Origin: Haliotis cracherodii
Taxonomy: Eukaryota
DNA: 64,000 nucleotides
NCBI RefSeq assembly: GCF_022045235.1
Contig: NW_027266300.1
Coordinates: forward strand, 248,001 to 312,000
Direction of reading: 5' to 3'
In this document: positions 722-54,475 of the stretch, piece after piece
How the letters are laid out: each line of letters opens with the position of its first letter
Position numbering within the stretch: the first letter of the stretch is position 1
Made by a program: the position numbers and the translations under genes
Notes under the pieces: model-generated
What the model was told of the DNA's origin: nothing
The model's database searches: none
Seen by the model: the letters and a program-made list of their open reading frames with translations, nothing else

Positions 722-3700
722 AATCCTGCAGCAGCTGGACCGGTCATCACCAGTACTCCAGACTCAAGACGTGGCCCCGAACCCTTGCTGCTGGTAGGTC
801 AATGACCCTTGTGTGTCTCCCTGCTGGAGGTCAATGACCCTTGTGTGTCTCCCTGCTGGAGGTCAATGACCCTTGTGTGTCTCCCTGCTGGAGGTCAATG
901 ACACTTGTGTGTCTCCCTGCTGGAGGTCAATGACCCTTGTGTGTCTCCCTGCTGGAGGTCAATGACCCTTGTGTGTCTCCCTGCTGGAGGTCAATGACCC
1001 CTGTGTCTCCCTGCTGGAGGTCAATGACCCTTGTGTGTCTCTCTGCTGTAGTCAGGGTTAAGTAGGTCCCCTGTACCCTCATGGTGGTTCAAGGGTTAAG
1101 TAGGTCCATAAAATACCATGCTTGTCTGTCATGGTGATTCAAGGAAAGAATAGGTCCCCAGTGACCTGTGCTTCTCTTCCTGTGAGGATTTCAGGAACAT
1201 TCCCTATATACCTTTGCTTATATAACCCCAAGGGTGCTAGATGGTTTTGACAACTTTCACACACTCTCATTCTGTGCAGTGACCACAGTGATGGCGTGAG
1301 GTTTATGTCTAAGAGCTTATCGAGTACATACAGACAGACATGATTGATACATTTTGCAGGTGGACCTGTCGGCAGTGGCGCCCCCTAGTGTTGGCGAAGA
1401 CGAACTGCTTCCTCTACGTCTCTCTGGTGATGTTGTCAACAGTGACGAGATTGTGTGTGCCAGCGATGGCAGTCTTGAAGTGGACATTCCTGATGTAAAG
1501 GTATCTCACTGTATCTTCTCTGTGGTGATTGTCTCCACCTGTGATTGTTGTGAGATACAATGAGGGTGGTTGTCTCCACCTGTGATTGTTGTGAGACACA
1601 ATGGGGGTGATTGTCTCCACCTGTGATTGTTGTGAGACACAATAGGGGTGATTGTCTCAACCTGTGATTGTTGTGAGATACAATGAGGGTGATTGTCTCA
1701 ACCTGGGATTGTTGTGAGACACAATAGGGGTGATTGTCTCCATCTGTGATTGTTGTGAGACACAATTGGGGCAATTGTCTCCTCCCTGTGACTGTTGTGA
1801 GACACAATGGGGGTGATTGTCTCCACCTGTGATTGTTGTGAGACACAATAGGGGTGATTGTCTCAACCTGTGATTGTTGTGAGACACAATGGGGGTGATT
1901 GTCTCCTCCATGTGATTGTTGTGAAACACAATGGGGGAGTTGTCTCCTCCCTGTTTTTGTTGTGAGACACATTTTGGGGTGATTGTCTCTTCCCTGTGAT
2001 TGGTGTGAGACACAATGGGGGAGTTGTCTCCTCCCTGTGATTGTTGTGAGACACAACTGTGTGGATTGTTTCCCCTGTGACTGTTGTGAGACACAACTTT
2101 GTCGATTGTCTCCACCTGTGATTGTTGTGAGACACAACTGTGTCGATTATCTCCACCTGTGTGCTGAGAGTAGGCAGACTACATACAACATACATGACGT
2201 CAGATCCGACGTAACGACTGACCGTGGGAACTAGCAAGAGCTGAGGAAAACCCCTAACTATTTATAGTGTTCACAAACACTACACCTGTGATTGTTGCAA
2301 GGGGCAGCTGAGGACCCGTTTGACCAACTCCCCGTTGCGCTCCATTAGTGGACCCTCTCACCCGAGGGATTCTCATACACAGCAGAGATGTATGTATTTG
2401 TTGTATTTATTCCTGTGTTGACAGGCTGCTGATCTTCCTGGAGATGTTCCTGACTCCAGGGAGCCCCATGCCGAAGTAATGCCTTCAGCTTCATCACCCA
2501 CAGAAATGCAGCCCACAACTAAACCTCACACCAAAGCAGAACAAGCTGTCCTGTTGAAGCCAGGCTCAGCCAGACACCAGAACACGAAGACAGGACGACA
2601 GGTTGGTCCGACAGCGAAGAAAAAGAGAATTGTTTCATGCAAGCCAAGTAGCTGTTTGGGGAGGCAACTTTCCCTGGGTACACGGCCATCCAAAGGTGTG
2701 AGTGCTTCCCTTGAACACTCAACAGTTTCAAACACCAAGTCTCCAAAGAGCTGGAGATCTTTCCCTAGGAGCAGCAGTGGGAGTAACATGATGGGCAAAC
2801 CTCATGTAGCTACTGCAAGAGTGGAACACACGCACACCTCTCAGCATCCGCTCTGTTCTCTGGTGGGCGTGGTCAAGAACTGTCAGAGGGCTCGGGCTAA
2901 TGGCAAGGTCAAGGTCATGTCCAAGTCCAGCAAGCTGATGGTGTCAATAGCACAGGCACCTCCAGGTACATATAGACAGGTAGAACCACAGCACCTCCAG
3001 GTACTTATAGACAGGTAGAACCACAGCACCTCCAGGTACATATAGACAGGTAGAACCACAGCACCTCCAGGTACATATAGACAGGTAGAACCACAGCACC
3101 TCCAGGTACATATAGACAGGTAGAACCACAGCACCTCCAGGTACATATAGACAGGTAGAACCACAGCACCTCCAGGTACATATAGACAGGTAGAACCACA
3201 GCACCTCCAGGTATGTAGATAGTAAATTCATAGGCACCTAGACAGTAGATGCAAAGGCATCACCAGATAAGTATAGACAGTACATCCACAGGCACCTTCA
3301 TGTAAGTAGACACTAGATCCACAGGCACCTTCAGTTAAGTAGACACTAGATCCACAGTCATCAGGTAAGTAGACACTAGATCCACAGGCACCTTCAGGTA
3401 AGTAGACAGTAGATCCACAGGCACCTTCAGGTAAGTAGACACTAGATCCACAGGCACCTTCAGATAAGTAGACACTAGATCCACAGTCACCTTCCGGTAA
3501 GTAGACACTAGATCCACAGGCACCTTCAGGTAAGTAGACACTAGATCCACAGTCATCAGGTAAGTAGACACTAGATCCACAGGCACCTTCAGGTAAGTAG
3601 ACAGTAGATCCACAGGCACCTTCAGGTAAGTAGACACTAGATCCACAGGCACCTTCAGGTAAGTAGACACTAGATCCACAGTCACCTTCAGGTAAGTAGA

Positions 3701-4239
3701 CAATAGATCCACAGGCACCTTCAGGTAAGTAGACACTAGATCCACAGTCAACTTCAGGTAAGTAGACACTAGATCCACAGGCACCTTCAGGTAAGTAGAC
3801 ACTAGATCCACAGTCAACTTCAGGTAAGTAGACAATAGATCCACAGGCACCTTCAGGTAAGTAGACACTAGATCCACAGGCACCTTCAGGTAAGTAGACA
3901 CTAGATCCACAGGCACCTTCAGGTAAGTAGACACTAGATCCACAGTCACCTTCAGGTAAGTAGACACTAGATCCACAGGCACCTTCAGGAGAGTAGACAC
4001 TAGATCCACAGGCACCTTCAGGAGAGTAGACACTAGATCCACAGGCACCTTCAGGTAAGTAGACACTAGATCCACAGGCACCACCAGGTACATATAGACA
4101 GGTACAGAGACGACATCATGCTTGTATAATGTGTCCCGACACACTGGTGTTACAGTCCTGAAGGTAACAAGCATGACTCTACTTCTTTCTCACTGCAGAT
4201 GCAATTATGGCCACTGTGAGAAGAGTGACTCAAGTATAG
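722..4239 (+). CDS. 3' part of an unidentified spliced gene (low-complexity S/K/P-rich C-terminus); exons 722-793, 1360-1500, 2425-2965, 4199-4239
   Basis: Four segments with AG/GT boundaries and compatible phases (0,0,1) give one open frame: NPAAAGPVITSTPDSRRGPEPLLL / VDLSAVAPP...IPDVK / AADLPGDVP...SIAQAPP / DAIMATVRRVTQV* (TAG 4237-4239). No domain recognised; the start lies upstream of the window. Confidence 0.65.
788..1047 (+). repeat. 32-bp minisatellite (~8 copies) beginning in the exon end/donor at 793
   Basis: Unit CTGCTGGAGGTCAATGACCCTTGTGTGTCTCC; the first copy reads CTGCTG|GTAGGT. Confidence 0.95.
1522..2160 (+). repeat. 41-bp minisatellite (~15 copies) about 20 nt after the donor at 1500
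   Basis: Unit GTGATTGTCTCCACCTGTGATTGTTGTGAGACACAATGGGG. Confidence 0.95.
2956..3215 (+). repeat. 35-bp minisatellite (8 donor-bearing copies) containing exon end plus 5' splice site
   Basis: Unit GCACCTCCAG|GTACATATAGACAGGTAGAACCACA starting at 2956, 2991, 3026 ... 3201. Confidence 0.95.
3285..4105 (+). repeat. 33-bp minisatellite (~24 copies), most units carrying CAG|GTAAGT
   Basis: Unit CAGGCACCTTCAGGTAAGTAGACACTAGATCCA; related to the exon end CAGGCACCTCCAG. Confidence 0.95.
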
Positions 4240-5123
4240 GATTGTGACAAGACAGACACAAGTATACCTCTGTGACAAGAGAGACACAAGTATACCTCTG
4301 TGACAAGAGAGACACAAGTATAGCGCTGTGACCAGAGTGACTCAAGTATAGCGCTGTGACCAGAGTGACCGAAGTGTAGCTCTGTGCTGAGAGACTCGAG
4401 TGTAGCTCTGACAAGAGAGACTCAAGTGTAGCTCTGTGACAAGAGAGACTCAAATGTAGCTCTGTGACGATAGAGACTCAAGTATATCTCTGTGACGAGA
4501 GAGTGACACAAGTGTAGCTCTGTGACGATAGAGATTCAAGTGTAGCTCTGTGACGATAGAGAGACTCCAGTGTAGCTCTGTGAGAAGAGTGACTCAAGTG
4601 TAGTACTGTGAGAAGAGGGACTCAAGTGTAGCTCTGTGACAAGAGAGACTCCATTGTAGCTCTGTGAGAAGAGTGACTCAAATGTAGCTCTGTGACAAGA
4701 GACTCAAGTGTAGCTCTGTGAGAAGAGTGACTCAAGTGTAGCTCTGTGACAAGAGAGACTCAAGTGTAGGTCTGTGAGAAGAGTGACTCAAGTGTAGCTC
4801 TGTGACAAGAGAGACTCAAGTGTAGGGCTGTGACAACAGAAACTCAAGTGTAGCTCTGTGACAGGAGTGACTCAAGTGTAGCTGACGAGAGAGACTCAAG
4901 TGTAGCTCTGTGACGAGAGAGACTCAAATGTAGCTCTGTGAGAAGAGTGACTGAAGTGTAGCTCTGTGACAAGAGAGACTCAAGTGTAGGGCTGTGTCAA
5001 GAGAGACTCAAGTGTAGCTCTGTGAGAAGAGAGACTCAAGTGTAGCTCTGTGAGAAGAGAGACTCAAGTGTAGCTCTGTGAGAAGAGTGACTCAAGTGTA
5101 GCTCTGTGACGAGTGACTCAAGT
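4215..5123 (+). repeat. ~29-30-bp minisatellite starting inside the last coding exon of gene 1 and running through its 3' UTR
   Basis: Unit approximately CTGTGAGAAGAGTGACTCAAGTGTAGCT; the first copy encodes ...VRRVTQV*. Confidence 0.9.
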
Positions 5124-9143: not shown

Positions 9144-9392
9144 TTTAGGACAGTGCTAGATTCAAGTGCTAACTCAGCTCTGTCCCCCTTCAGGGTTGTC
9201 TGGAAGCTCTTGTAGAATCTCCATCATGAAGGCAAAACGAGCGAGGCCACGGCAACACAATCAGAGATCAAAACTTTATTTACATACCAACACATGACAA
9301 TATTTTGTATACAACTGAAATAAAATACTCCAGAAAATATATTTGAAAGTTTCCTCCATACACTTCCATGGCTCCTTCCTTCCATTCACGGA

Positions 9393-10140
9393 CACTGTTG
9401 TGCTTCAGTCCACCTATCCCCCCCACACACTGTTGTGCTTCAGTCCACCTATCCCCCCACACACTGTTGTGCTTCAGTCCACCTATCCCCCCACACACTG
9501 TTGTGCTTCAGTCCACCTATCCCCCCACACACTGTTGTGCTTCAGTCCACCTATCCCCCCACACACTGTTGTGCTTCAGTCCACCTATCCCCCCACACAC
9601 TGTTGTGCTTCAGTCCACCTATCCCCCCACACACTGTTGTGCTTCAGTCCACCTATCCCCCCACACACTGTTGTCCCAACCCACAATGTTGTGCTTCAGT
9701 CCACCTATCCCATCCCACACTGTTGTGCTACAGTCCACCTAACCCTGCCCACACTGTTGTGCTTCAGTCAACATATCCCATCCCACAATGTTGTGCTACA
9801 GTCCACCTAACCCTGCCCACACTGTTGTGCTACAGTCCACCTAACCCTACCCACACTGTTGTGCTACAGTCCACCTAACCCTGCCCACACTGTTGTGCTT
9901 CTGTCCACATATCCCCGCCCACACTGTTGTGATAGTCCACCTAACCCCGCCCACACTGTTGTGATAGTCCACCTAACCCCGCCCACACTGTTGTGATAGT
10001 CCACCTAACCCCGCCCACACTGTTGTGATAGTCCACCTAACCCCGCCCACACTGTTGTGATAGTCCACCTAACCCCGCCCACACTGTTGTGATAGTCCAC
10101 CTAACCCCGCCCACACTGTTGTGATAGTCCACCTAACCCC
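9393..10140 (+). repeat. 32-34-bp minisatellite forming most of the SDE2 3' UTR
   Basis: Units CACACTGTTGTGCTTCAGTCCACCTATCCCCCCA grading into CACACTGTTGTGATAGTCCACCTAACCCCGCC; begins about 9 nt after the SDE2 stop. Confidence 0.95.
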
Positions 10141-16100: not shown

Positions 16101-18436
16101 AGGTATGGTGCTGACAAACCTAGAAACATAACTGAGGTGAACAGGGATTCAAACCCACTGTCAGAGGTTTCTGGCATGCCCACATGGCCACCTGGTGACA
16201 GTCAAATACACCTCACCTGTCACAGACTACAACTGTCTCAGATCTCACGTGTCTCAGATCTCACCTATCACACATCTCACCTGCCACACATCTCACCTGT
16301 CACACATCTCACCTGACACACATCTCACCTGACACACATCTCACCTATCACACTTAACACCTGACACACATCTCACCTGTCACACATCTCACCTGTCACA
16401 CATATCACCTATCACACATATCACCTGTCACACTTATCACCTGACACACATCTCAGCTGTCACACATCTCACTTGACACACATCTCACCTGTCTGTAATG
16501 CATCGTCCAGGTCATTAGCAACTTTGCTGCGCTGTGCCACATATTTTGGGTCGTCGAAGTTGTGCTGTGGACGCGCTCTCTTCCGTGCCAACCTCTCCTG
16601 GCGCTTCTCTTCCTTCTCTCGCTCCCGATCTGCCTGCTTGCCGAGCCAGTCCTTCAATCTGTGGGTGCGCACAAGTGGCTTACAATTATGGAGTTACATT
16701 TTGGCTGGACTAACGAGTCATGCATACTTCAATTAAATTTGCGTAACAAACTAGACATCAGGTTCATAAACAACATGGATTTCCATAAGCAAATTTTTTT
16801 TCGACCGCAGGATTTGCAAAATATGTGTACCACCTACTGGGTGTCGACAGATGCTTGGCAAATTGTTTCATATTTCTAATCAAGGTGCTCAGGTGAGACC
16901 TGTTTTATTACAACATAGATCTTAATTATCAATCAGATCATCTTGACTGGGCGCCGTCAGTTTCTTTGGAGCAAATGCAAGCGATATGAGAGATGGAATC
17001 TGATTGGTCAATAAGAGTAACATAGAAGGGACATAACTTGTAACAGCCACTGGTGGCACCATGATCGAGCCTGAACACTCCAGTCCAGTTCAGCAAGGGT
17101 GGAAACTGAACTTTTATAGTCAGTTGAAGTCCTTGCCTCCGGAAGATGAGGTATTCATTTGCAGGTGTTCATACAGATGATATGTGAATGTTTATTCTTC
17201 TCTGCCTTGACTTTGTGGTTCAAGTCAGATGGACACTCGAGCCTGCGCAACATACACCTGGCCACTGCATGGTCATGGCGTTACTTTTACAGTTACTCAA
17301 GTGGATATGTGTGTGTATGTAGTAGAGGGCTGGGAAGGGGGATGGGGGTTCGGGGGGGTTTCCAAAGGTTCCAGCAGCTGAGTACATACTTCTTCTCATT
17401 GTTGACATCTCTCATCCGACGCCCACTCAGATCCCTACACGCTTCTCTGCTCGTTGTCTTTTCAATCTGAGCTCCGATTGCTCGCAGCATAGACCCAAAA
17501 CCTGGAACATACAACTGTCATTACTAAAAGATGTATCATTGATCTGGGAGGGAGAAATAATGCAATACCATGACATTGCCAGTTAACATGTATCTCATAA
17601 GAGCGTGATACACACACATCTGCAAAAATAATCAGGTTTATAACAAAACCAGGCAAAGGTTTCTTTAGCATGAAATGAAATGTGATTCAATACATTTTGT
17701 GTATAAAATGACAATAATGGCATTGCCAGTGAAAGAAAACATATGGTTCCTGATGTATATTTACTTATCACTGAGGATCAATCAGAAACTCCATAGTGCA
17801 AGGGTCCTAAATCTAGCCTTTGTATACACTTCAGTAGCCATGTCACAGTTACCTCCCTTCCCTGCCAGCAGTCGCGGGACACAGTGATAAACTTGGCCTT
17901 CAGCCACATCCTCCTGATCCTGCGAGATGCTACCGTTACATGTCACATAGAAACCCGTCTCTTGAAATAACTGCAACATCACAGAAAACACTCATGTTCA
18001 GTAATCATGAAGGCAAAACAAAGATTCAGAGGTCATACTTCTAGATCAATCTGAATGAGAGCAAGTAATTTTGTATTGATTATTTGTGTGTACTTTAATC
18101 ATAAGTAGTTTATTTCACATAAAGTAGATAGTGTAACTAGAAATCAATAGTACTCTGCATCCTATGTAAATGGTAAGTTATTGTTTTTCACTTATCTCCA
18201 TGTTTTGGGTTTTTAGTTGCTTAAGAAATATTCATAGTTTTCTCTCTAATCTCGAGAACAACTGTAAAACATCCCTAAATGCCTGACATGCTACTTGCAA
18301 CACCAAACACGAGGCACATTACGCCTCTACAATGACATCCCAACAATGCATTCATAACGCTCCTTCTGGTCGCCATCTTTACTCGGAATGTACCCTCGTT
18401 ACACTTTGATATACGTAAATGTACTGAGTGTTGCAT
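10149..18436 (-). CDS. SDE2: Replication stress response regulator / splicing factor SDE2; exons 18436-18323, 17970-17853, 17501-17390, 16658-16489, 15804-15696, 11255-10916, 10358-10149
   Basis: Hallmark motif [46 protein letters not shown], a coiled-coil/HNFDDPKY segment, an acidic linker and a C-terminal SAP domain ([36 protein letters not shown]). All junctions are GT-AG and phase-compatible. Exon 1 start and exon 6 donor (alternative near 10988) are less certain. AATAAA on the - strand near 9275-9280. Confidence 0.93.
11419..11959. mobile_element. MITE (pogo/Tigger-like) in SDE2 intron 5
   Basis: TA-CAGTCGTGCATCGTTTATACGGA ... TCCGTATAATCGGGGCATGACTG-TA inverted ends with TA duplication. 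Confidence 0.85.
12000..14030 (-). mobile_element. decayed large DNA-transposon ORF, possibly Academ-like
   Basis: Frameshifted fragments such as [29 protein letters not shown] and [12 protein letters not shown]...LDNWN resemble motifs I recall from large invertebrate transposases. The family call is from memory, not a search; boundaries are approximate. Confidence 0.4.
13377..13929 (+). repeat. 60-bp minisatellite (~9 copies) inside the decayed transposon ORF
   Basis: Unit GAGACAGAGAGTGATGAACATCTGGACTATTACGCCTTGACCTATGTGATGCAG (approximate); explains three overlapping repetitive ORFs. Confidence 0.95.
15006..15167 (-). mobile_element. SINE family A copy
   Basis: Reverse complement of the 46604-46770 element with a (GAGT)n tail. 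Confidence 0.85.
16209..16492 (-). repeat. 16-bp minisatellite containing the SDE2 exon 4 donor
   Basis: - strand unit ACAG|GTGAGATGTGTG; the first copy is the real donor at 16489/16488. Confidence 0.9.
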
Positions 18437-19031
18437 GTTCACAACACTATGTAACCTGGTTCATCGCTATTAGCTGCTATTCCGCAATTTCATGGCTAAA
18501 ATGATTGAGCCAGTACAAAGACTTTTCCCAATAAACGCTGAATTGATGAGGATAAGTCACAGTTCATGGGATACTATCATACGACTATCCTCATAAAACC
18601 GATATTGTGATATATGTTATGACATGTTATTTTCATACAAAGTAGTTTTTGAAAACATTTGAAATCACAGCTACACAAGCCACGAAAGACAGGAATCATA
18701 CATCTTTGCTGGAGAAAATAAGATAAGGTACCTTTGAAAGTAACACATCTTTCACGTCAGATATCTTGTGCAAATGAGAAGAGATCACAAAAGTTTGTCG
18801 TGGAAAGGAATGAATAACTAAGAGTGGCGAAGACATTGTGATGTCGCAGTTGACTTCGACGAGTCGCCTTCTGATCGTCGCAGTAATAAACCGGAAGGAA
18901 GATAAACACAAGTAGAGCCTCGATGTGGAGATGGTAACGTAAGACACGAGTCAATCACTTCCGCTCAAAGTGAGAAGAGCGCGGGGTTCAAAAATGTGAA
19001 CGACATTACACAGATTTTGCTCTTTCTTACG
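18437..19031. promoter_or_regulatory. probable bidirectional promoter region between SDE2 (-) and the ADAM gene (+)
   Basis: Divergent start codons about 600 bp apart; locally CpG-rich. Inferred from arrangement only. Confidence 0.5.
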
Positions 19032-21578
19032 ATGGCGGTTCTTCCGATCTTTTTATTCTTTAACTATGTGATTTGTCTGATTACCTGCACGACCCCGGAC
19101 AAGGAACAGACAAGCAACTCGTGTTTCACTGCAAGAGCGTCTGTAAACATTATGGAACATCGAAAGAAAGCGTTTGATGAGTACCAAGAAGTGGGGAAAG
19201 TGTTGATCAGTGTCATTCCTACAAAATTTGAGGATAGCCACACTTATGTGAGGAAACTATATTTCAGGAGTTTTGGCGAGACGTTTCATCTTATTCTAAG
19301 GAGATATTCAATATTTCACAAAGACATGCAGTTGCTGGCGGGTAGCGAGCAACTAATAGAAGTAAATGCCATGAAGAATGATTACTTGCCGATAATATAT
19401 GTAGGCCTATCTTCACATGCTGACACTTCCCCAGCATATATATCACTTGGAAAACTTGTTGGCAAGGAATTTGAAGTATTCATTCACACAGGAAATATGT
19501 CTTACTCTCTCGAGTGTTATCTTAAAGACAATGACAATATCTTGTATTCTACATATGGATTTATGCAACATACTATGGATAAATGTCGTGTTTATCGATG
19601 GCACAACTCCAAAATGTCCAAGGTTATGAGAGGAATTGACAGTTGTGACTTGAAATCAAGAAAGTTTAAAGATTTTAGGTACAAGACTATGCCAGAAAAC
19701 ACAGAGTATGCCCCTCAAAAGGGTCTGCATGGCGGACAGCCTGAAAGAAGTTCAACACGTCCAACAGGAAACTGTGTAATTAAGCTTGTGGCGGATCACT
19801 TGTACTTCAAACATGTTGGGAAAGGTGACGTCAGAAAAACCATTGCAGAAATGGCTGTGAGTTTGGCTGAGGCTGACATGATATTTCGGCAGACTGACTT
19901 TGATGGTGATGGAGCTGGGGACAATATAGGCTTCAAAGTAGGACATATCACTATTTACAAAGAATACCAGGAGTACAGTTTGAAGGATGAAAATATGGAT
20001 GTGTACACCTACCTGGACAGATTCTCTCAATATGACTTCAGTAATTATTGTTTAGGAGTGGCGTATACTTACAGAGACTTTGAGGATAATATTGTAGGAC
20101 TTGCATGGATTGGTAGTTCCAATGCAAATGCAGCTGCAGGTGGAATATGCCAAAGGAGAATTTGGTATCGACCTGACAATAAATACTATAGCTTTAACAC
20201 AGCACTGGTCACACAGCTTAATCATGGCAATATGATTTCGTCCTACTCAACAGGTTTGATCCTTGCTCATGAATTTGGACATAGTTTTGGCAGCAGCCAT
20301 GATCCTAAAGGAAATTCATCTTGTTCCCCTGGTGGTCATTTTGGCAACTACTTAATGCACCCCTACACAAGTGATGGTAATCTGGCCAACCATCGACGCT
20401 TGTCTTTCTGCAGCATCAACAGCATTTACCCTGTGCTGGTGAAGAAGAGCGTGGGTTGTTTCAAGGTCGATTTGGGTCCAGTTTGTGGCAACTCCCTTGT
20501 AGAGGACTCGGAGGAGTGTGACTGTGGAGTGTCGGATGATGTTTGTCAGGACATTGATCCATGCTGTACTCCCCAGAACCCTTCCATCTTATCTGACACC
20601 CCCTGCAGAGTGCGGAACTCCTTGGGCTATCAGTGTTCCCCCAAGGTCTCCCCCTGCTGCACCGCAAGCTGCAAGTATGTCAGTTCCCAGGGTAGCACTG
20701 TGTGTCAACATGCCACAGAGTGTCAACTGGCCGCCACTTGTCAGCCTGGAAATGGTACCTGCCCGTCCCCGACACATCACCCCGATGGAACGCTGTGCGA
20801 CGCAGGTCGGAGGCTGTGCAGGGGAGGGAGATGCCAGGACAGCGTGTGTGTGTCTCTCGGTCTCCGGGAATGTCAATGTTCCAGAACATTGCGAGATGCA
20901 TGCTTCGTCTGCTGCATCGCAACCAACATCAGCAACTGCGACTGCGCCCCCATCAGCACCTATCAGAGTGACAAAACTCACCTGATTCGGCATAAAGGTG
21001 ATCCGTGTTTTAATTATGAAGGATTCTGTGATGAAGCTGGTCAGTGCATTCTGAGTAGTAGGAGTATCTATGATGACTTGAATAAACTGTTTGGTGAGGA
21101 AACTGTAGTAAATGTTGGCATCTGGTTCCGTAAATATTGGTATTACATAATCTTGGGCATTCTCTTAGCTACAGCTCTTGCAGTCACTGTATCACTGTTT
21201 TTCAAACAGAAACCAGATGAACACACCGAGGCAATGAGAATTGGCAAACTAGCAGCTGCACTGGCTCATGTAGAGCAAATGAAAACCATGTTCGAAGAAA
21301 AGCTGGAGGACTGTGAAGAAGTATTTGAGAGTGTATCTAGTCAGTTGCCATGGCAGCAGATGTCTCTGACGGAGGCTGTTGCCAGGCTGACGGTATTATT
21401 CCCTACAGCCCCACTCTCCCTACTCATCAAGACAGCCAAGTCCAGCTCCTCAGAAGATTTTGCTGTCAAAATGTTGCTTGTGAGGAATTTCCCTGTGCAA
21501 AGGTTTAGTGTAACTTGGCCTTCAGAGGAGGCCAAATCTCTCACATTGATCAGGTCAAAACATGCAGTGTCTGCCTGA
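19032..21578 (+). CDS. ADAM10/ADAM17-like disintegrin and metalloprotease, single coding exon (~848 aa)
   Basis: Signal-like N-terminus, prodomain, reprolysin domain (CVIKLVADHLYF, YRDFEDNIVGLAW, zinc site HEFGHSFGSSHD at 20268-20303, Met-turn NYLMHP), disintegrin (VCGNSLVEDSEECDCG), Cys-rich region, TM helix (YWYYIILGILLATALAVTVSLFF) and cytoplasmic tail. First ATG is 19032; the ORF track starts at a GTG. Confidence 0.92.
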   Translation: MAVLPIFLFFNYVICLITCTTPDKEQTSNSCFTARASVNIMEHRKKAFDEYQEVGKVLISVIPTKFEDSHTYVRKLYFRSFGETFHLILRRYSIFHKDMQLLAGSEQLIEVNAMKNDYLPIIYVGLSSHADTSPAYISLGKLVGKEFEVFIHTGNMSYSLECYLKDNDNILYSTYGFMQHTMDKCRVYRWHNSKMSKVMRGIDSCDLKSRKFKDFRYKTMPENTEYAPQKGLHGGQPERSSTRPTGNCVIKLVADHLYFKHVGKGDVRKTIAEMAVSLAEADMIFRQTDFDGDGAGDNIGFKVGHITIYKEYQEYSLKDENMDVYTYLDRFSQYDFSNYCLGVAYTYRDFEDNIVGLAWIGSSNANAAAGGICQRRIWYRPDNKYYSFNTALVTQLNHGNMISSYSTGLILAHEFGHSFGSSHDPKGNSSCSPGGHFGNYLMHPYTSDGNLANHRRLSFCSINSIYPVLVKKSVGCFKVDLGPVCGNSLVEDSEECDCGVSDDVCQDIDPCCTPQNPSILSDTPCRVRNSLGYQCSPKVSPCCTASCKYVSSQGSTVCQHATECQLAATCQPGNGTCPSPTHHPDGTLCDAGRRLCRGGRCQDSVCVSLGLRECQCSRTLRDACFVCCIATNISNCDCAPISTYQSDKTHLIRHKGDPCFNYEGFCDEAGQCILSSRSIYDDLNKLFGEETVVNVGIWFRKYWYYIILGILLATALAVTVSLFFKQKPDEHTEAMRIGKLAAALAHVEQMKTMFEEKLEDCEEVFESVSSQLPWQQMSLTEAVARLTVLFPTAPLSLLIKTAKSSSSEDFAVKMLLVRNFPVQRFSVTWPSEEAKSLTLIRSKHAVSA

Positions 21579-24678: not shown

Positions 24679-27600
24679 TCAAGCCTTCCCTCCCTTCTGG
24701 CCCGCCGCCAGCTCCTCCATGACTGGCTTGAAGGGGATGCAGAGGCTGAACAGATCGTTGAAGAATGTGCCGTCGTTGTCTCCTCCCCCGAAGATGATGA
24801 CCTCGTCCTCCTCCTGGTTCTCATGGCTGTACGGCAGACAGATCGAGAGGTGGCCAGCCCTGGCAGTGGGCGCACCGTCAACACGGATACAGCTCCAGCT
24901 CCTCTCCACTGAAAGCAGAAGTCAGCTGATATAAGTGGTTGGACGATACAAAGATGCATCAGTGGATCGCGATATCTTACTAGTTAAAAATATTGATTCA
25001 TACCTTAAATGTTTACTTTATTGCCTGTTACACCAAACACTAATTATTAGTAGAAATTATTAGTGAAAATTAAATATTGTCATCCATTGCCCCATACTTG
25101 ATACTGCCTGTCAGTGTACCAGGTATTTGACTATCCTGAAGATGTAATCATGACACAGCCCCAAACGCTTTTGCATGTGTTGATGTACCAGACACCCCCC
25201 CCTCCCCTTCCTATGTGGTTGGACTGTATTGATGTCTCACCTAGGTTGAAGATGTGGGTGTCGTCCAGTGCGTTGTTGCCGTCATACCCGCCATGGATGA
25301 GGATGCGGTTGTTGCTGAGAGCGCAGGAAGCATGCCAACTGAAACAAGACCATTTGTAAAGCGAGACGATAGATTTGTGGAGACCACATCAATTGAAACC
25401 AAATCCATGACAGAATCTACAAAATGATGAAGCCAGTCATTACCCATGAAGATCCAGGGTAGAATATGTCTTTAGCAAACATGCTTGTCGTAAGAGGCGA
25501 CTCAAGGGATCAGGGGTGGGGTGTCAGGCTTGCAGACTTGGTTTGCTGCACGTCATTGTATCCCAATTTGCATGGATTAATGCTCATGATATCAATCACT
25601 GGATTGCCTGGTCCAGACTTATAGAGCTTGAATATTGCGGTGGCGTTAAAAAATAAACAAACAAAAACTTGTACAGCTTGAATATTGCTGATAGCAGCGT
25701 CAAACAAGAAGCAAACAAACAAGCAAACACAGTGTAACTTCTATTGTATGAGCATAACCAAAACATTTGAAACTGTAGCTTCCGGTCAGGTTCATCCTAT
25801 AGCCTCACCTTCGTGCTTTTGGTGGCATCCCCTTGACCTCTGGCTTGGACCAATCAACAGTACCTGAAAACAAGGTCAAATGTCAGTTTGGGGGGGTCAA
25901 GGCTGTTTTACAGCAGCAGGGGTCACATAGTTTCACAATAAAATATTTCGGATATTATATCAACCGTCCTTCAGCTCAGATCACTGTCACTAGACACCAG
26001 TGGATCACAAGATGGCCTCACCCAAATCAAGGATGTTTAGATCTACTCACCCAAATCAAGGATGTTTAGATCCACTCACCCAAATCAAGGATGTTTAGAT
26101 CTACTCACCCAAATCAAGGATGTTTAGATCCACTCACCCAAATCAAGGATGTTTAGATCCACTCAGCCAAATCAAGGATGTTTAGATCCACTCAGCCAAA
26201 TCAAGGATGTTTAGATCCACTCAGCCAAATCAAGGATGTTTAGATCCACTCAGCCAAATCAAGGATGTTTAGATCCACTCACCCATATCAAGGATGTTTA
26301 GATCCACTCACCCATATCAAAGATTTTCAGATCAACTCACCCATATCCAGAATGTATAAGTCGTTGAAGCAGATCGGGGCGTCCCATCCTCCAAACACAA
26401 CCAACTGGTCCTTGATGAGCGTGGCAGAATGTCTGCAGACAAGATGGGTACACAGGACATCAGGAATGTGGTCACAAAATAATCACTTGAAATTAGAGCC
26501 ATTCTTCAGCATATCAATATTATTTTCCTCCGATAAACAAAAAACAAGTTACCAGACGAGGGAGCAACTGTTTTAGGCTGTAACACCTTACTTTACTGTA
26601 GAACTTGGGAGTATCTTGAACCACCCCTTCCCAATACCTGACTGACGGATGGACGTCTCACTAAGTCACCACTCCAATCCATAAAAGCACCCCCTCACCG
26701 CAAACACTTCATCAACACAACACTGACATGCGTTGTCACGTACCCGGAGCGAGGTGCAGGTTTATCCCCGGTGACGATGGGGCAGTACCAGTTCTCCATG
26801 ACTGGGCTGAAGATGTGGATCTCATTACTGCAACCGTCGGGGTTTGGGTCAGGTCGGGGATACACCCCACCAAATATCCACAGCTCATGGCGATACAGTG
26901 TCGCGCTGTGGTATGATCTCGTTGGGGCTTTGCCGTTAACCTGAGTGAGGAAGAGAAGAGTTACACCGGCGTCTCATCTGGAGACAATGTTAGACTACTC
27001 GTCACACAACATATTGTCAAATACTACACTCAGTAGGGATTGTCCTGGGACAGGTTAGACTGGGTGAGACCTCGGCTCAACGTGTGAATTGTCTGCCTGT
27101 ATAACAGTATCAGTATGATAGGCTGATTGTGTCACGTTTTGTCACCACGGGAACTGTGCACGATTTCTAAGGCTGGCTGATAACGATTATCAAAATGAAA
27201 ATTGTCATTGATTATACTATACCTAACATAAACTTTGTGACATCAAAGTTGTAATGTACCGAAAACAGACCTGTTATTGTCAATTGCCCGAGACAGAAGC
27301 AATCTGCTGATCACAACAAACTGAGTGATGACACTACTTGCTATTCATGTACTATTTTCTTAACTCATACTCTTAGTAAAGCTAAATACTGAAAATAGAA
27401 TTCCTTAATTGAGATTTACGAATTGGTTAACAATTCCCTGAGCAAAGAATCACAAACCATGCCGACATCTGCCTTCAGTCCTGTATGTGATTACAGCTGG
27501 CAACTGCTAAATGATGCTTTGGCATTCATATTCGGAAATGAAGCCATAAAAATACAGTAAAAACTTTTCCATCGATGATTGACAGATATAAGGTGAACAA

Positions 27601-30600
27601 TTATCAATCTCTATAATCTATATAGCCAGCCATAACGATGTCAGAGCTTCGACTGTTAACTTTCTGACATCTTCAGTGGTAAAACTAACAGTTTTAGTCC
27701 ACTAGTCTTTTCAATAACATGACAGCAAACTCCCCAAACTGGCAAATTTCTACTTGTCCTTATGATATCTTGACTAGTGGGCAATTTGGCAAGGACTACA
27801 GGACGAGAGCAAATTTCTAATGCTGATCTTTATAATGCAACATTATCGTCTGTCCCCCCACCCCTCAGTGAAGGCGGAGACATTAACGTCTGTCCCCCCC
27901 ACCCCTCAGTGAAGGCGGAGACATTAACGTCTGTCCCCCCCACCCCTCAGTGAAGGCGGAGACATTATCGTCTGTCCCCCCCACCCCTCAGTGAAGGCGG
28001 AGACATTATCGTCTGTCCCCCCACCCCTCAGTGAAGGCGGAGACATTATCGTCTGTCCCCCCCACCCTTCAGTGAAGGCGGAGACATTATCGTCTGTCCC
28101 CCCCACCCCTCAGTGAAGGCGGAGACATTATCTAAAACTGGACAATCACCTTGATGAGCTGCCACTTCCACTCGTCCACATCCAGCATATGCACGTCATG
28201 GAACCACTTCAGGTTTTTAGATCCCCCGTATACATATATACACCGCGCCGTGGGGTCATAGGTGGCGCTGTGTCCCATGCGGTACTCAGTCTTCTGACCT
28301 TCCACTGTCAACTCTGGCGACCTCCATCGCCTGGTGTCTGCAACCCAACACAAGCTACACAAAACCCGACACAACACAACCTGTCACAACACAACCTGTC
28401 ACGACACAACCCGAAACAACACAACCCAAGCTTAACAAACCGGGCTAAGGGGGTGCTGCAATATTGAAGCATGTTTCAGAAATACCTGGTGACAGTCACC
28501 CATTGAAGCAAGGCTGGCTATGTATACGTAAACTACGGTTGGATGATTGAACATTGTGTAAATTTCATATTTTCATTGAACAAATTTGTGAACAGCAAAA
28601 CAAACACACAAACTCCTATTGCCGCCATGACCATAACATGAGATGCTCAGTAAAACATTGTGCATGAATAGGGAAGTAACTGCGCACTACATTGGATCAC
28701 ATTTTTTAAAGTTTTGTAGAATTTCACTGATGGGGTCATGTGTTTGAGATGCTGAATATCTAAGGATTTTTAAAAACAAAATGAAAATAAAAATAAAAAA
28801 CATGCGGCAGACTTTGATGTGGGCGGTGCCTGAGAACCAAGACTATTAGCTGGTGATGTCAAGAGATAAATGTGGGGGGTCTGCCTTTATCAAGGGGGTG
28901 CAATATCCGTAGCACTGAGTACCTGGGTCGAGCGTCCACACTGCGTCGCGGCTGAGTTGCTGCCGATCACCCTGGCCACCGACCAAGACTGCGCGGTTGT
29001 TGTGGATCATGCACATGGACGATCCCCATCGGCTGCTGGGACTCGGAGCTGAAGACACAACACACACATACAAACAACCTAGCACATTGTGCATACAAAA
29101 CTTACATGCAGAAGTCTCATCCTGATGTCACCTCACGAGAGTTATCACTAGGACGGGGACGGTACACCAACTGTGTGATCCCATACATAGCACCATAGTT
29201 GCATTTGCTCTTATCTGTGGTGAGTAAGCATATTTTCCATCTTTTTAACCTGGACACTGATGGTTTACAGTTGTCAGTGTCCAGTAAGGCACAATGGAAT
29301 ATCGCAATGCTTCAATGTATCACCCCACTCCTAGTGAGTCACAAACTTACCACTGACGAGCAGCTGTAACCCGCGCCATCTTGTCAACCAAGGCATGAAA
29401 CAAGGAATGAATCTTGGCTATATTTGGGGCGGTCGGGTAGCCTCGTTGTCAAAGCGTTCGCTCGTCACGTCTAAGACCTGGGTTCTATTCCTGACATGGT
29501 TACAATGTGTGAAGCCCATTTCTGGTGTCCCCCGCCTTGCTATTACTGGAATATTGCTAAAAGCGGCGTAAAAGCAAACTCACTCACTCACCTATATTGA
29601 ATGTAAAGACCGAGTTGATCTTGTCGCCATAGCAACAGATCTTGTATCTTTGAGTCAATATCTCCAGATAAATCTGTGGCTACATGGGAATTCTCAAAAT
29701 AAAATACCGTAAATCTTCCAAGTCAAAGAGAGCGTGAATTAAATGTGAAAAAATTGAGAGGTCTTTGCGCGCATTAATTAACTTCACATTTATTTCTCCA
29801 AAATGACTACCAACAATAAGACGGCCTCACTGCACACGTTGGATAGTGAATATACCAACTTGAATATAAACACAAACACGGTTTATTTAGCAGCAGTTGT
29901 AACAAGAATATATAAATGTCATTCAAAAAATAGGAATTACACAATGGGTATTCCGGTGAGTTATCACTGCTGGGGTCAAGAGTTCTACCCACTTGCGTCA
30001 AGCTTGTTGACACCTTCTCCGCGTACCAATCAGTGAACTGTTGTTGGTTCCATTGTTTTAGTACCTTTGAACTTCCTCAATGCCAGTCAACAGAGTAAAC
30101 CAATCTCATTACAATCAGATCTTAGTTCTCGCTGCCGCCAAACAAAGATCTGAGGACATCCCATTAGGTCACGTCAGAACGACCGGTCATTAGCCATTCT
30201 AGAATGTTCTTTTGTTCAGGTTTCAAACTTTTAATTGAGAATTTGTCAATATATGTTTTGAAGCGTAGTCGCCAATTTGAAATTAGTGATGTAAAGCATG
30301 AGAAAGCAGCCTTCTGATTGGCTAATGTCGACATCTTGTCAGTCTGATGTGACCTGCAATGGGATGTCCTTGGATCATTGTGTAGTGGTAGCCAGAACTA
30401 AGATCTGATTTTAATGTGATTGCAGAGTAAACATATAAACTGAGTGTTGTTTTTAGGAAAACACTGTTTATTGTTTTGACGGAAGTGCTTTACTCAGTGG
30501 TAATAAGCGGTGCTATTGATATTGAGTTGCTATACTAGGGTTCAGCAGTTGTATAAATTTGGTGACGCAATGATTTCCAGATTTCCAGTACTCGGACGTA

Positions 30601-33600
30601 TCACAGGTAGATGTCTGACCTCCATCATGCCCATGACCATGTTTCTAAACCTGGACACTTTATTCATTCTAGAGCTGAAACTCGTCTAAATGTGAACATA
30701 CCCCTTATTGAGACATCTTTACACCGTGAGAGTCTTGGACCGGTCTTGGGCAGTATGGCAGAATTGTTGACTTGGAGTACAGGTGTTCCTACAGTTTCAG
30801 AATTTTTCTTGCCATATTTCTTTGGAGTTTTGAATTCATTCTTCAGAGCCCTCATCCTGGTGTTAAGTTTCTGTTTGCGTGCGCTGGGAGCCTCCGGAGT
30901 CTCGTCTGTGCTCTCACGGCCGCGCTTCTTCTGTTTCCTTGGCAACGGTGAGGGTGTGGACAGCTGCAACAAGACAGAGAGTCTAGATACATGTATACAA
31001 TGTACTGTCTGAATGTAGGAACATCACCTGCTGACAGCCTACACGTCAAGACAGAGAGTCTAGATACATGTACACAATGTACTGTCTGAATGTAGGAACA
31101 TCACATGCTGACAGCCTACACGTCAAGACAGAGAGTCTAGATACATGTACACAATGTACTGTCTGAATGTAGGAACATCACCTGCTGACAGCCTACACGT
31201 CAAGACAGAGAGTCTAGATACATGTACACAATGTACTGTCTGAATGTAGGAACATCACCTGCTGACAGCCTACACGTCAAGACAGAGAGTCTAGATACAT
31301 GTACACAATGTACTGTCTGGATTTAGGAACATCACCTGCTGACAGCCTACACGTCAAGACAGAGAGTCTAGATACATGTACACAATGTACTGTCTGGATT
31401 TAGGAACATCACCTGCTGACAGCCTACACGTCAAGACAGAGAGTCTAGATACATGTACACAATGTACTGTCTGAATGTAGGAACATCACCTGCCGACAGC
31501 CTACACGTCAAGACAGAGAGTCTAGATACATGTACACAATGTACTGTCTGGATTTAGGAACATCACCTGCTGACAGCCTACACGTCAAGACAGGGTGTCT
31601 AGATACATGTACACAATGTACTGACTGAATGTAGGAACATCACCTGCCGACAGCCTACACGTCAAGACAGAGAGTCTAGATACATGTACACAATGTACTG
31701 TCTGAATGTAGGAACATCACCTGCCGACAGCCTACAGGTCAAGACAGAGAGTCTAGATACATATACACAATGTACTGTCTGGATGTAGGAACATCACCTG
31801 CAGACAGCCTACACGTCAAGACAGAGAGTCTAGATACATGTACACAATGTACTGTCTGAATGTAGGAACATCACCTGCAGACAGCCTACACGTCAAGACA
31901 CAATGGAATGTTCAGCTCATCACTCGGCAGGGATGTGGGTCTGACATGGCATCATGAGCAGCACGGCAAGGGGGACAATGGCTGGCTGAGGGAGATCCAC
32001 ATCAAAATAACAATTCCGGTTTAGATAAGCCTTGAAGTTATTACTAAGCAGCAGTTGGTACCAGCCTCTGGCTTTCTGTTCAACATGTTGTAGAATACGG
32101 ACATAAACCTTGTAGACTCAGCGCAGTGGCTGAAGGAGCAGGCTTATTTTGATTTATCTTGATGTTTGTTTGTTGTTTTATGCCGCACTCAGCATTAATC
32201 AAGCTGTATGACGGTGGTCTGGACCAAACAATCCAGAGACATAATGAACATCAATCCACACAGTTGGGATACAATTACACGCATCAACCAAGTCAGCGAG
32301 TCTGACCACCTGATCCTGTTAGTCGCCTCTTACGGCAAGCATGGGTTGCTGAAGACCTATTCTACCCCGGATCTTCAAACTTAAACCTTTTCCAACATTC
32401 CCCAGACAATGTATTCTTCCCAAACTGTCGCCGTCTGCCAGCTGACCTGTGGTGTGTTTTCGTTTTCCTCCTGTATGTTCTCCTGCTTCTTGACCACTTC
32501 TTCCTCCGTGGTCGGTGTTGCGAGGCTGCTGTCGTAGCTGTGGTCACCCCCCTGCACCTCCACACACAGCTTGGCCAGGGACACAGCGCTGTTGCTGTGT
32601 TCCAGCTTTGCTGTGTCCTTGGTCTTCTCCCACAGAATACATCTGCACAAAACGATGCAATCATAAATTATTATTTTCCAAATGTCATCAAAGCCAAATA
32701 AACTGCAAGTAATTCTTCACCTGACTTAGAAAACTAAATGGTCCACTGAGTTTCCAATTTATGAAAATTAGTGTTGTCACTCCAGGATGTGTCTTGATTT
32801 GTCTGGACCGGCTCTGAGGTTACTCCTGTTACAGCCGAGGGTGACCTGTCTACCACAGATAACGGGGTGGACACAACAAACAGTGAGGAGGCTTCACTAA
32901 TACCCCGACCTTGACTCCAACATGAGATGAAGAACAATACTGATAATGGAGATATACAGATGCCTTAACATTTCAGCCAGTTTCTCTTAAAAAGCACAAT
33001 GACACAATCTAATGTCATCATTTAAAGATGCACTGTCATGGTCATCATAGGTACGGGGTCGAAAAATATCTCTTAATTCAAATCATGAAAAAAAAAGCAA
33101 TATCTTCTCAGAAAATTCACTTGTCGAAGTGAAACTTTGCACTGCACCTCTCCTATTGGTATAGAAACTGTTCCCTCAATTACAAAAGAATCCATGAAGT
33201 AGTTTTCAAGTTATAGGTCGCACAAATGTTGATGTAAAAAAATGAAAAATAGCATATGTTCCTATTACATTTTACAGCAATGTGTCAATAATTTATGTGG
33301 CAGAAGAATGGCCTGCTTCAACTTTCCAAATTTTATTGAACCAAGAAACAACCTGGTTTTGATTGGAGCAACTTGATCTTCATGTCAACCTGACTGGTCT
33401 GATTGTCCCCCCCCCCACTCAGTACATGACCTGATTCTCTCTCCCCACCCCCAACAACTCTGTACATGACCTGATTGTCCCCACCCCATTGTCAATAACC
33501 TAGTGTATAAAGTGTCCCCCACCCCACTCTGTCAATGACCTAGTGTATAAAGTGTCCCCCACCCCACTCTGTCAATGACCTAGTGTATAAAGTGTCCCCC

Positions 33601-39107: not shown

Positions 39108-40540
39108 ACTCCTAAAAAAGAAACGCAATACGGATATGTTTGGCCATAAAAGCATAATTAGCGGACCAAGAGGTGCAAAATCAAGAGGTTTAATGTGTTA
39201 TAGTGTCAGTGACAAATTTACTATTCGGAAAAACGCACCCAGTGTATTAACAAAATTAACAAAAATAGTGCAGCAGCACTATGAACATTATTAAAGTGCA
39301 GCATGGGTCAACACGTGATCGGCCAAGGTCGGGACGACCAAGAGTAACCACCCCCGCCCAAGATCGCAACATCCGACTGCGCCACCTACGTGAAAGGACG
39401 GCCACAGCCACCTCAACCGCATCCCAAATACCCGGACTGCGCAGAATCCCCGACCAGACCGTACGAATCCGTTTAAGAGCAGCAGGTCTACGAGCACGAC
39501 TTCCTGTTCGAAGCGTTATATTTAGTCGACAACATCGTCAACAACGACTGCATTGGTGTCGTCAACGCAGGGTATGGCCTCAACTGCGATGGAGAGATGT
39601 CTGGTTCAGCGACGAATCCTCCGTCGAGGGGATAGAAGAGCACGGGTCTACAGACGTCAGAGAGAACGTTACGTCGGAAAACTGCGTACAGGTTTGGTGG
39701 GGGTAGCGTTATGATATGGGCGGGTATCTTTCAGCATGGCAGGACAGGTTTGGTCCATATCCAGGGCAATCTTACGGCTCAACGATACATCAACGACATT
39801 CTCCTACCACACGTCCTCCCAATTGCAGCCAACGGCAACGGTGTATTCCAGCAGGACAACGCTCGACCGCATACAGCACGGATCACAAGAGTCTGTCTAC
39901 ATAATAACAACGTTGATGTTCTCCCCTGGCCCTCCAGATCCCCCAATTTGAACCCGATAGAGCACATATGGGATGAATTGCCGTGATGAGGCACACTGCA
40001 GGGGTCTGGTCATGGGCTCTTGGTCCTAAGCCAAACCACATGACTGTGCTGTTGTCTATATTGAAGGGCATTAAAATAAGCACAGGGTAGAACCGCGCTT
40101 CTTATGACAAGACGAGTAACATGCCCTTGTTTGCACGGTTGGTTGCACATCTGTGTGCATGGAGCGCCAAGTGAGCCATGGCACAAATAGTTGGACATGG
40201 ATAGACGGCTACGCCGACGTCAACCACAACACCAGACGTTGCAGCAGTTGGCATTTCCGTTGCAGCCCGAGTGGGCTACCATTCCCCAGGATGTGATTCG
40301 CATACTCGTCTCTTCCATGTGCAAGAGATGTCAGGCCGCTATCGATTCCAACGGGGGAAATACGCGTTATTAATGATAGCTGACCTTCACCTTGGGACTT
40401 TTCCTATGTACCGATAACTGAGATGACTACAATCACCAAGTGTTCTCTCCACAACGTTTTGGCTCAATACCTGGTACGGCTCCTCGTATGAATGTATTTT
40501 CCAACCTCACACAAATCTGGCTTTGCGTTTCATCTTTTTA
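39108..40540 (+). mobile_element. decayed Tc1-family transposon (DD34E type)
   Basis: DRPRSGRPRVTT, VWFSDES, VMIWAGI, FQQDNARPH, WPSRSPNLNPIEHIWDEL, EWATIPQDVI...GGNTRY*; frameshifts; ends CTCCTAAAAAAGAAACGCA / TGCGTTTC. Confidence 0.92.
39981..40199 (-). mobile_element. ~219-bp insertion in the Tc1 transposase, possibly a LINE (L2/CR1-like) RT fragment
   Basis: Removing it restores W-D-E-L-D-R-R-L-R-R-R. The - strand reads LMPFNIDNSTVMWFG, resembling the LINE RT motif 'WxMxFNxxKxxVMxFG'. Confidence 0.5.
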
Positions 40541-41715: not shown

Positions 41716-43167
41716 CACTCTTAAAAAAAGAAACGCACAGGTAGATTTGTAGTAAATTTATTGTAAGTCGATATATTTAATTTAATATCATAGATACAAA
41801 TATGAAATTTTGGAGCTCGATAGTCACGTGTTGTCATTGTACAGTGGCATTGAAAACTGTTCATTGTCATGTCACATAAGGCCACAAGGTTGCGACGAGC
41901 TCAGTATCTCGTGTGACCGCCCCGGGCAGCAATCACGGCTCTGCATCTCCTCGGCACTGACTGGATAAGTGTACGAATTCTATCCTGCGGAATTCTGCGC
42001 CATTCTTCTTGTAACACGTTGGCCAGTTGTGGGAGTGTCTGCGGCGTGTTCTGACGTTGAAGTACACGTCGATCGAGTTCTTTTCCAGAGGTGTTCGATT
42101 GGAATGAGATGTGGAGATCTCCACTGCCAGTGCAAGACGTTGATGTTGGCATTATGGAGGTAGTATACGGTGACACGAGCTGTGTGCGATGGAGCCTTGT
42201 CCTGTTAAAACAGCTCCCTCTGGCGATCAATGATTAGAAGAAGGTGAGGTTGATTCATGTAGCGATGTGTTGTCAAATTTCCCTGAACCACAACCAAATC
42301 AGATCTCGTGGTGAAGGATATGGCCACCCACACCATGACACTACCGCCACCGAAACTGTCAAATTCACGAACACAATGTGCGGCAAAACGCTTATTTCGA
42401 CGACGATAAACACGTTGTCTTCCATCTCGCCGGTGAAGAAGAAATCGTTGTTCATTGCTAAACCACACTCGTCTCCAGTTTCTCAAATTCCAAGGCTGTA
42501 AGGTATGGCACCAACGCAAGCGTCGCTGTCGATGGATCTGTTGCAAAACAGGGACGATAACTGGTATTCTGGGTCGGATTCCAGCTTCGCGAAGATGGTT
42601 CCTGACAGTCTGGTCCGATATCCTCCCCAAACCAAGGATGCGTCCTGCAGTCTCCGTAGCTGTGGCATTGCGATGACGTAGATGGAACAGTCGAATGTAG
42701 CAATCCTCGGCCGGTTCTCAGACGGTCTGCAGTGGAATTGAACTGTGTGTATCGGTCAAAGAGGCGACAAAGACTGCGATTCCCCTCTTTGGATACGTCC
42801 TATGGCGATGTTCCGATCGGAAGCGGTGAGTCTCGGCATTTTCGAACTTGAAAACTGTTGACAATTGAATGACAAATTATAGGCTAATGCTTGCCTTTTT
42901 ATAGCCACTAACACGAGTAACGACTGCCATAACTTGCACGTGCATTTTGCTTTACTGTTTTCTTCCATGACATTTTTGAACAAGTGTGAAAACAATGCCG
43001 CTTAAGACATTGAAAACCGACAATGGCTGCCTTTTGATGTACCGTTTGTCGAATATCGGGCCACCGACATTTTCCAGTAACATATATCCAAGTAAGATAC
43101 CGGGTTTTTTGTGTAGTCAGATTCAGTAAACTACATACTACCTGTGCGTTTCCTTTTTTGAAGCGTG
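41716..43167 (-). mobile_element. decayed near-full-length Tc1-family transposon with both TIRs
   Basis: TIRs CACTCTTAAAAAAAGAAACGCACAGGTAG / CTACCTGTGCGTTTCCTTTTTTGAAGCGTG-TA; MPRLTASDRNIAIGRIQRGES, RISDQTVRNHLREAG, FGGGSVMVW, EEWRRIPQDRI...GGHTRY*. Confidence 0.93.
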
Positions 43168-53684: not shown

Positions 53685-54462
53685 CCTCCACCTGCCATGC
53701 ATCTCCTCCACCTGCCATGCTTCTCCTCCACCTGCCATGCATCTCCTCCACCTGTCAGACCTCTCCTCCACCTGCCATGCCTCTCCTTCACCTGCCAGAC
53801 CTCTCCTCCACCTGCCATGCCTCTCCTTCACCTGCCAGACCTCTCCTCCACCTGCCATGCCTCTCCTTCACCTGCCAGACCTCTCCTCCACCTGCCATGC
53901 CTCTCCTTCACCTGCCAGACCTCTCCTCCACCTGCCAGACCTCTCCTCCACCTGCCAGACCTCTCCTCCACCTGTCATACCTCTACTCCACCTGTCATAC
54001 CTCTCCTCCACCTGCCATGCCTCTCCTTCACCTGCCAGACCTCTCCTCCACCTGCCAGACCTCTCCTCCACCTGCCAGACCTCTCCTCCACCTGTCATAC
54101 CTCTACTCCACCTGTCATACCTCTCCTCCACCTGTCATACCTCTACTCCACCTGTCATACCTCTCCTCCACCTGCCATACATCTCCTCCACCTGTCATAC
54201 CTCTCCTCCACCTGTCATACCTCTCCTCCACCTGTCATGCCTCTACTCCACCTGTCATACCTCTACTCCACCTGTCATACCTCTCCTCCACCTGCCAGAC
54301 CTCTACTCCACCTGTCATACCTCTCCTCCACCTGCCATACCTCTCCTCCACCTGCCAGACCTCTCCTCCACCTGTCATGCCTCTACTCCACCTGTCATAC
54401 CTCTCCTCCACCTGCCATACCTCTCCTCCACCTGTCATGCCTCTCCTCCACCTGCCATACCT
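53685..54462 (+). repeat. 20-bp minisatellite (~38 copies)
   Basis: Unit CTCTCCTCCACCTG(C/T)CA(T/G)(A/G)C. Confidence 0.96.
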
Positions 54463-54475
54463 GTTCTCCACGGGA

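Follow-up and report, generated by a model that had tools for sequence, protein, structure and literature searches.

The window analysed here is a stretch of 64,000 nucleotides from Haliotis cracherodii (contig NW_027266300.1), and near its start lies a + strand gene whose product is an uncharacterised protein of about 813 amino acids. Its coding exons include 722..793, 1360..1500 and a penultimate exon of 541 nt at 2425..2965, and the coding part of its terminal exon, with the stop, is placed at 4199..4239 by the C-termini of orthologues. The H. cracherodii RefSeq protein P0005 matches the window letter for letter over 722-793, 1360-1500 and 2425-3015, and so includes the whole of the penultimate exon. 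A Pfam search of the protein found no family, and among 1.84 billion representatives it matched two sequences, itself and an uncharacterised protein of Gigantopelta aegis; relatives were found only in Haliotis and Gigantopelta. Atlas matches all score below 0.9 and serve as leads only, and a metagenome scan with the exon end as query gave no matches. The protein (P0002, P0005) is mostly of low complexity, with many S/T-P sites and one KEN motif, from which a function in the cell cycle may be guessed. A K-R-L-N-S-T-T-K segment is duplicated within it, and isoform X3 lacks one copy.

The last intron of this gene, 2966-4198, is 92% minisatellite (1139 of 1233 bases), arranged as about 35 head-to-tail units of 35 and 33 bp. 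Unit 1 (2951-2986) spans the exon-intron boundary at the donor at 2965, and its exon part is the last 15 nt of exon 2425..2965. It is the first of seven units of 35 or 36 bp (2951..3196), each of which contains CAG|GTAC(A/T)T together with a second donor-like site, CAG|GTAGAA, that is present in seven copies, one per full 35-bp unit, and that is absent from the preliminary description of this sequence. That description counted eight CCTCCAG|GTA donors and our unit census agrees (2965, 3000, 3035, 3070, 3105, 3140, 3175 and 3210), the eighth lying in a degenerate 32-bp unit (3197-3228). This unit and the two that follow it (3229-3286) make up a group of three relics of 32, 23 and 35 bp (3197..3286), which are intermediate between both unit types and are also present in relatives (loose ends at 3003 in X1 and X2, two of the runs considered below). 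Behind them are 24 derived units at 3287..4072 (22 of 33 bp and two of 30 bp), matching the earlier estimate, and an exact CAG|GTAAGT is present in 18, the first at 3364 and the last at 4054; the array of perfect donors claimed previously is thus real, and the figure of about 20 given for it is to be replaced by 18. GT is lost in four of the other six and the donor is weakened in two, and there is no copy of CAG|GTAAGT on either strand in the rest of the 64-kb window. A further 35-type unit, placed earlier at about 4075-4105, is found at 4073..4104; it is a near copy of unit 1, and matches 2951-2982 without a difference in runs X1 and X3. The intron closes with a unique segment, 4105..4198, containing a pyrimidine tract and, as an acceptor scan and contigs indicate, the sole good acceptor AG (4197-4198). 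Exact CAG|GTACAT recurs six times in the intron beyond the real donor. Two minus-strand open reading frames (3228-4115 and 3335-4189) overlap the array; a coding repeat on that strand was put aside, since a 33-bp repeat commonly leaves frames open in this way.

The number of perfect copies is no statistical surprise, because the copies descend from one unit and are one amplified event, not 18. A shuffled 33-bp unit contains CAG|GTAAGT in 271 of 2,000,000 trials, and a unit seeded on the real donor needed just two substitutions, at +4 and +5, to reach it. Among the 24 derived units there are five variant events in the 9-nt donor and five in the other 24 nt; variation in the decoy 9-mer is thus no lower than in the remainder of the unit, with no deficit in these small numbers, and a selected U1-binding array is not supported. 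In the window the last 33-bp unit has a perfect donor; in run X1 its GT is lost and in run X2 it reads CAT|GT. The order of units differs among the window, which is a single H. cracherodii sequence, and the relatives in these two runs.

Pairing energies with the 5′ end of U1 are -7.1 kcal/mol for the real donor and -13.7 kcal/mol for the decoys, about twice as strong, in keeping with the prediction that the true donor is the weaker. The real donor is ordinary for the window, where the median of 22 mapped donors is -7.0 kcal/mol. The first perfect decoy lies 399 nt downstream of 2965, and its exon would be at least 940 nt long, versus 541 nt. Masking of the decoys by structure was rejected: fold z-scores are +0.4 to +1.1, and the 18 decoys are predicted to be about as accessible (median 0.035) as the 22 true donors (0.021). 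A decoy acceptor was sought among the 147 YAG trinucleotides of the intron, where only that at 4198 has a good pyrimidine tract; the best YAG in the array has 36% T, whereas 24 true acceptors have a median T content of 50%. Neither AATAAA nor ATTAAA occurs in the intron, which has only the weak variants AGTAAA (3221) and AATAGA (3702 and 3834), and the proposed role in polyadenylation thus finds no support.

Both protein and contig evidence identify the segment as an intron of a + strand gene with 2965 as a used donor and 4199 as its acceptor, as had been predicted. The C-termini of H. rufescens isoform X2, H. asinina and H. rubra have a conserved 13-residue tail that is given only by 2965 joined to 4199. 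We also compared, over 2170-3025, the contigs of four of the 21 listed runs (X1, X2, X3 and X11), which we take to be RNA; they derive not from H. cracherodii but from relatives 96-98% alike (96.3-97.8% over the exon), which may carry fewer or weaker decoys than the window. All four cover the penultimate exon and contain the upstream 1500-2425 junction, a loose end at 2423 carrying the end of exon 1360..1500, and they therefore hold spliced RNA. At the authentic donor, CAG|GTACAT (2963..2971, cut after 2965), three of the four have a loose end that continues as the start of exon 4199, for 73 letters in X11 and for 27 in X1 and X2, the latter falling below the 31-letter bar for bridging; the X3 contig diverges from the reference at 2965 with five unlisted letters.

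The in-frame stop at 3016-3018 and the ending ...QHLQMQLWPL* that use of the second donor (3000) would produce, both given in the preliminary description, are correct as translations. Use of that donor is a different matter: none of the four runs has a loose end with exon-4199 letters at 2979, 3000 or 3014, and no junction from any later 35-bp donor is seen over 2170-3025, in contigs that drop rare forms and give no counts. If k was 31 in the assembly, a path from any of donors 2 to 8 would have cut the donor-1 contig after 20 letters, not 27. Support exists instead for another protein end, read-through to 3016-3018, in RefSeq models and unspliced contigs.

This stop, an in-frame TAG in unit 2 (3016..3018), is where the RefSeq proteins P0001, P0005 and P0006 end; the models concerned are P0005 of H. 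cracherodii and X1 and X3 of H. rufescens, and two H. rufescens transcripts encode an identical read-through protein. Contigs in runs X1, X2 and X3 span the last unit, the spacer and 27 letters of exon 4199, and run X2 has one contig passing from the exon into the array (30 plus 15 letters). The upstream intron is also present in run X1, so that its unspliced pieces may be pre-mRNA or DNA. From the unspliced contigs and the RefSeq models ending at the unit-2 stop, a read-through form is predicted; retention, or use of a donor located beyond the stop, would each yield the same protein. Junction-based NMD follows a 50-55 nt rule; the donors from 3070 onward lie at least 52 nt behind the stop, and transcripts using them would be NMD candidates under the usual rule. 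With full retention of the last intron no exon junction lies behind the stop, and the usual junction-based NMD would not apply. Read depth, which cannot rank parts of the gene, was not used as evidence: the arithmetic for run X2 gives about 12.7 for the junction versus 6 for read-through, the unspliced-to-exon ratios are 0.38, 0.44 and 0.08 in runs X1, X2 and X3, and depth would suggest fewer 35-bp units in the relatives. The same applies to missing cover of the upstream intron, which is fully covered in X1 and has no cover in X2 and X3.

Four genes were mapped in the window: the host gene, SDE2 and a kelch gene, the latter two matching H. cracherodii proteins, and a selenoprotein W-like gene at 48169-50059 (+), in which a TGA lies in frame within a G-A-U-G-Y motif and for which neither the first exon nor a SECIS element was located. 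A single open frame of 890 codons at 18906-21575 (+) has reprolysin (M12B) domains and starts 70 nt from the start codon of SDE2, which is on the other strand, and the segments 39269-39983 (+), 42208-42717 (-) and 59630-61179 (+) comprise Tc1-like transposase pieces and an NHL-repeat open frame.

Tandem Repeats Finder returned 57 rows in the window, corresponding to 36 merged arrays of period at least 10. The 22 arrays inside the chosen spans of the four genes were compared with 22 donors, 24 acceptors and 4 stops, each gene yielding an open frame; the 14 arrays outside these spans were left out. Six of the 22 donors are straddled by arrays (793, 2965, 16489, 26341, 48739 and 48925) versus 1.0-1.2 expected under random placement in this one window, a null that ignores GC content (P 0.00015-0.0004), and without the focal array five remain versus 1.0-1.1 (P 0.001-0.003). 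None of the 24 acceptors in the same spans is straddled (1.1-2.5 expected), and for 10 of the 22 arrays the start coincides with a donor or stop or is at most 25 nt from one (1.8-3.1 expected). The other donor-straddling arrays are 788-1048, 48737-48826 and 48905-49385 on the + strand, with the host gene and selenoprotein W among their genes, and 16208-16494 and 26017-26355 on the - strand, with SDE2 and the kelch gene among theirs. The first, at the donor of exon 722..793, has a 32-bp period and has lost GT in its copies; 48905-49385 contains 14 exact AAG|GTGGGT sites in all. Compared with the true donor, the copies are weaker in two of these five arrays, mostly equal in two and slightly stronger in one, a mix such as drift predicts.

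Other arrays lie close to gene landmarks. A 28-bp array at 4214-5123 (+) begins within the coding part of the host gene's terminal exon and extends into the 3′ UTR, straddling the stop codon; 9392-10140 (-) starts 9 nt behind the SDE2 stop; and 1524-2161 (+), 27840-28132 (-) and 30970-31900 (-) either begin no more than 25 nt from a donor or have their end 7 nt short of an acceptor. The minus strands of 53685-54471 and 55730-56148 repeat the donor-like sequences CAG|GTGGAG and CAG|GTGTGC, with no adjoining exon mapped.

Selection can explain why arrays are tolerated at donors and not at acceptors, provided that the first copy stays in use; it leaves the excess over random unexplained, which suggests a bias in where arrays arise. 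A genome-wide bias of this kind, with abalone minisatellites arising more readily at exon 3′ ends, is in our judgement about as probable as not. A search mostly outside subscription journals found no report of such clustering of minisatellites at donors, be it in molluscs or across whole genomes. If arrays do straddle many abalone donors genome-wide, this would suggest that exon ends and the birth of repeats are linked by mutation, and gene models built from short reads at such sites, the read-through RefSeq models being an example, may be unreliable. We think it unlikely that preferential birth at exon 3′ ends, with up to a quarter of donors trailing arrays, is joined to a role of the perfect U1 array as a dial that sets, by its copy number, how far the last intron is removed and switches the C-terminus; the dial is the weaker part of that combination.

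The explanation that we favor, with a probability of about 0.7, is that a minisatellite spans the real donor of the last intron and that the copied donors are by-products, mostly passed over for the first. The layout of the array, the splicing of 2965 to 4199 and the unspliced intron pieces in contigs are observed directly; the steps behind them would be as follows. A duplication of about 36 bp across the exon end would have seeded the array, and the units at its two ends still match. A variant within the array, free of coding constraint, would then have gained +4A and +5G, reaching the consensus by drift, and would have spread through ordinary minisatellite turnover. Seeding by duplication followed by inner turnover fits the matching end units, the relics between the blocks and the one relic unit that carries the +4/+5 change before the 2-nt loss, and the final unit probably represents the far end of that duplication. 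In its exon half the 33-bp unit would encode A-P-S, which differs from the A-P-P or A-P-Q of the orthologues, and that half is thus derived; the +4/+5 change is proposed to have run toward the consensus. The first donor would win by position, being used first in transcription and giving the shorter exon (541 versus at least 940 nt), by analogy with F7, and the unspliced RNA would most simply represent incomplete removal of the last intron, giving the read-through protein end. Several points count against this explanation: the +4 and +5 changes would both have run toward the consensus, perfect pseudo-sites competed in F7 minigenes and there are 18 perfect sites here, read-through RefSeq models exist, unspliced contigs occur in three of the four runs, and the contigs come from relatives rather than the window's species.

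A possible though doubtful alternative retains the neutral origin and supposes that the array has come to interfere with splicing of the last intron: U1 bound at its many strong sites would compete with the real donor, and copy number would tune the share of retention and read-through. The unspliced contigs agree with it, although a last intron often turns up unspliced where there is no array, and run X1 also holds the upstream intron. Both species in which the array is known have read-through RefSeq models, and the proteins obtained for H. rubra and H. asinina are spliced forms, but these two species are compared by one protein each. The decoys' stronger pairing with U1 also favors hampered removal, as does the retention that a competing cryptic donor can cause in VWF, according to the available text of that report (PMC8706089); against this, the F7 report, as far as its available text goes, describes minigene splicing that is unaffected by copy number (PMC1557585).

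Less probable again is use of the perfect donors at a real rate, with translation ending at 3016-3018, the intron being removed from the 3′ UTR and the transcripts mostly cleared by NMD. The sole finding that keeps this use open at the locus is that perfect sites competed in F7, again in the available text (PMC1557585). It would agree with the lack of any predicted structure hiding the decoys and with the one read-through protein encoded by two H. rufescens transcripts, and the contig comparison over 2170-3025 could not have shown junctions from 33-bp donors. However, the spliced contig of run X11 continues for its 73 letters into exon 4199 without a converging path, the unspliced acceptor contigs already explain a read-through form, and 399 nt separate the first perfect site from 2965.

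Telescripting, the protection by U1 against early polyadenylation, leads one to expect a poly(A) signal near U1 sites, and no canonical one is found in 2966-4198. It is very improbable that selection maintains the array as a device for binding U1 that controls donor choice or blocks early polyadenylation: the 18 perfect sites, the two changes toward the consensus and the block layout common to relatives would accord with such a device, but there is also no decoy acceptor, the donor is not conserved above background, the last decoy is broken or weakened in both informative relatives, and arrays of this kind are common in the window.

The favored reading, a donor-spanning minisatellite with mostly unused copies, places the array in the F7 type, a class already known from human genes: it is a head-to-tail array of minisatellite length, with its first unit across the exon-intron boundary and the donor repeated downstream in the intron, as in F7. 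For the 37-bp VNTR of F7 intron 7, the available text of Borensztajn et al. (2006; PMC1557585) describes use of the most upstream donor, which wins whatever the copy number and even versus sites of consensus value 91; perfect pseudo-sites in minigenes took about 70-90% of splicing. According to the same text F7 has 4-8 identical pseudo-sites, whereas the abalone array fills 92% of its intron with two unit types; copies stronger than the real donor are natural in abalone and were present in F7 only in engineered mutants; and the abalone array, unlike that of F7, is in a last intron and has a stop in unit 2. That text also lists donor-spanning arrays of 10-25 copies in IFI6 (6-16) intron 2, CBS intron 13, LMNB2 and PDGF intron 4 (PMC1557585). 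The first site alone is used in LMNB2 and PDGF, and the first plus two more in IFI6 and CBS, whereas use of second or third sites is not seen in the abalone contigs.

Two other systems are less close. The decoy exons of SF3B1, OGT and ARGLU1, in the accessible portion of Parra et al. (2018; PMC6097662), are conserved cassettes with a U2AF-bound acceptor and a donor; the abalone intron resembles them in having several competing unused sites and in being longer than 1 kb and partly unspliced, but its array has donors only, with no paired cryptic acceptor and donor, and the donor is not conserved, strong conservation being absent from the one unit compared in two relatives. A 27-bp VNTR in intron 3 of an abalone TSSK1-like gene (PMC6905558) is length-variable and, like the focal array, a Haliotis intron array with units of 27-35 bp; in contrast to the focal array, the available part of that report mentions no overlap with a splice site. 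The closest comparison is with F7, and the locus is a natural version of the F7 experiment, with perfect downstream donors set against a weaker first one, at which junction counts would test position versus strength in an invertebrate.
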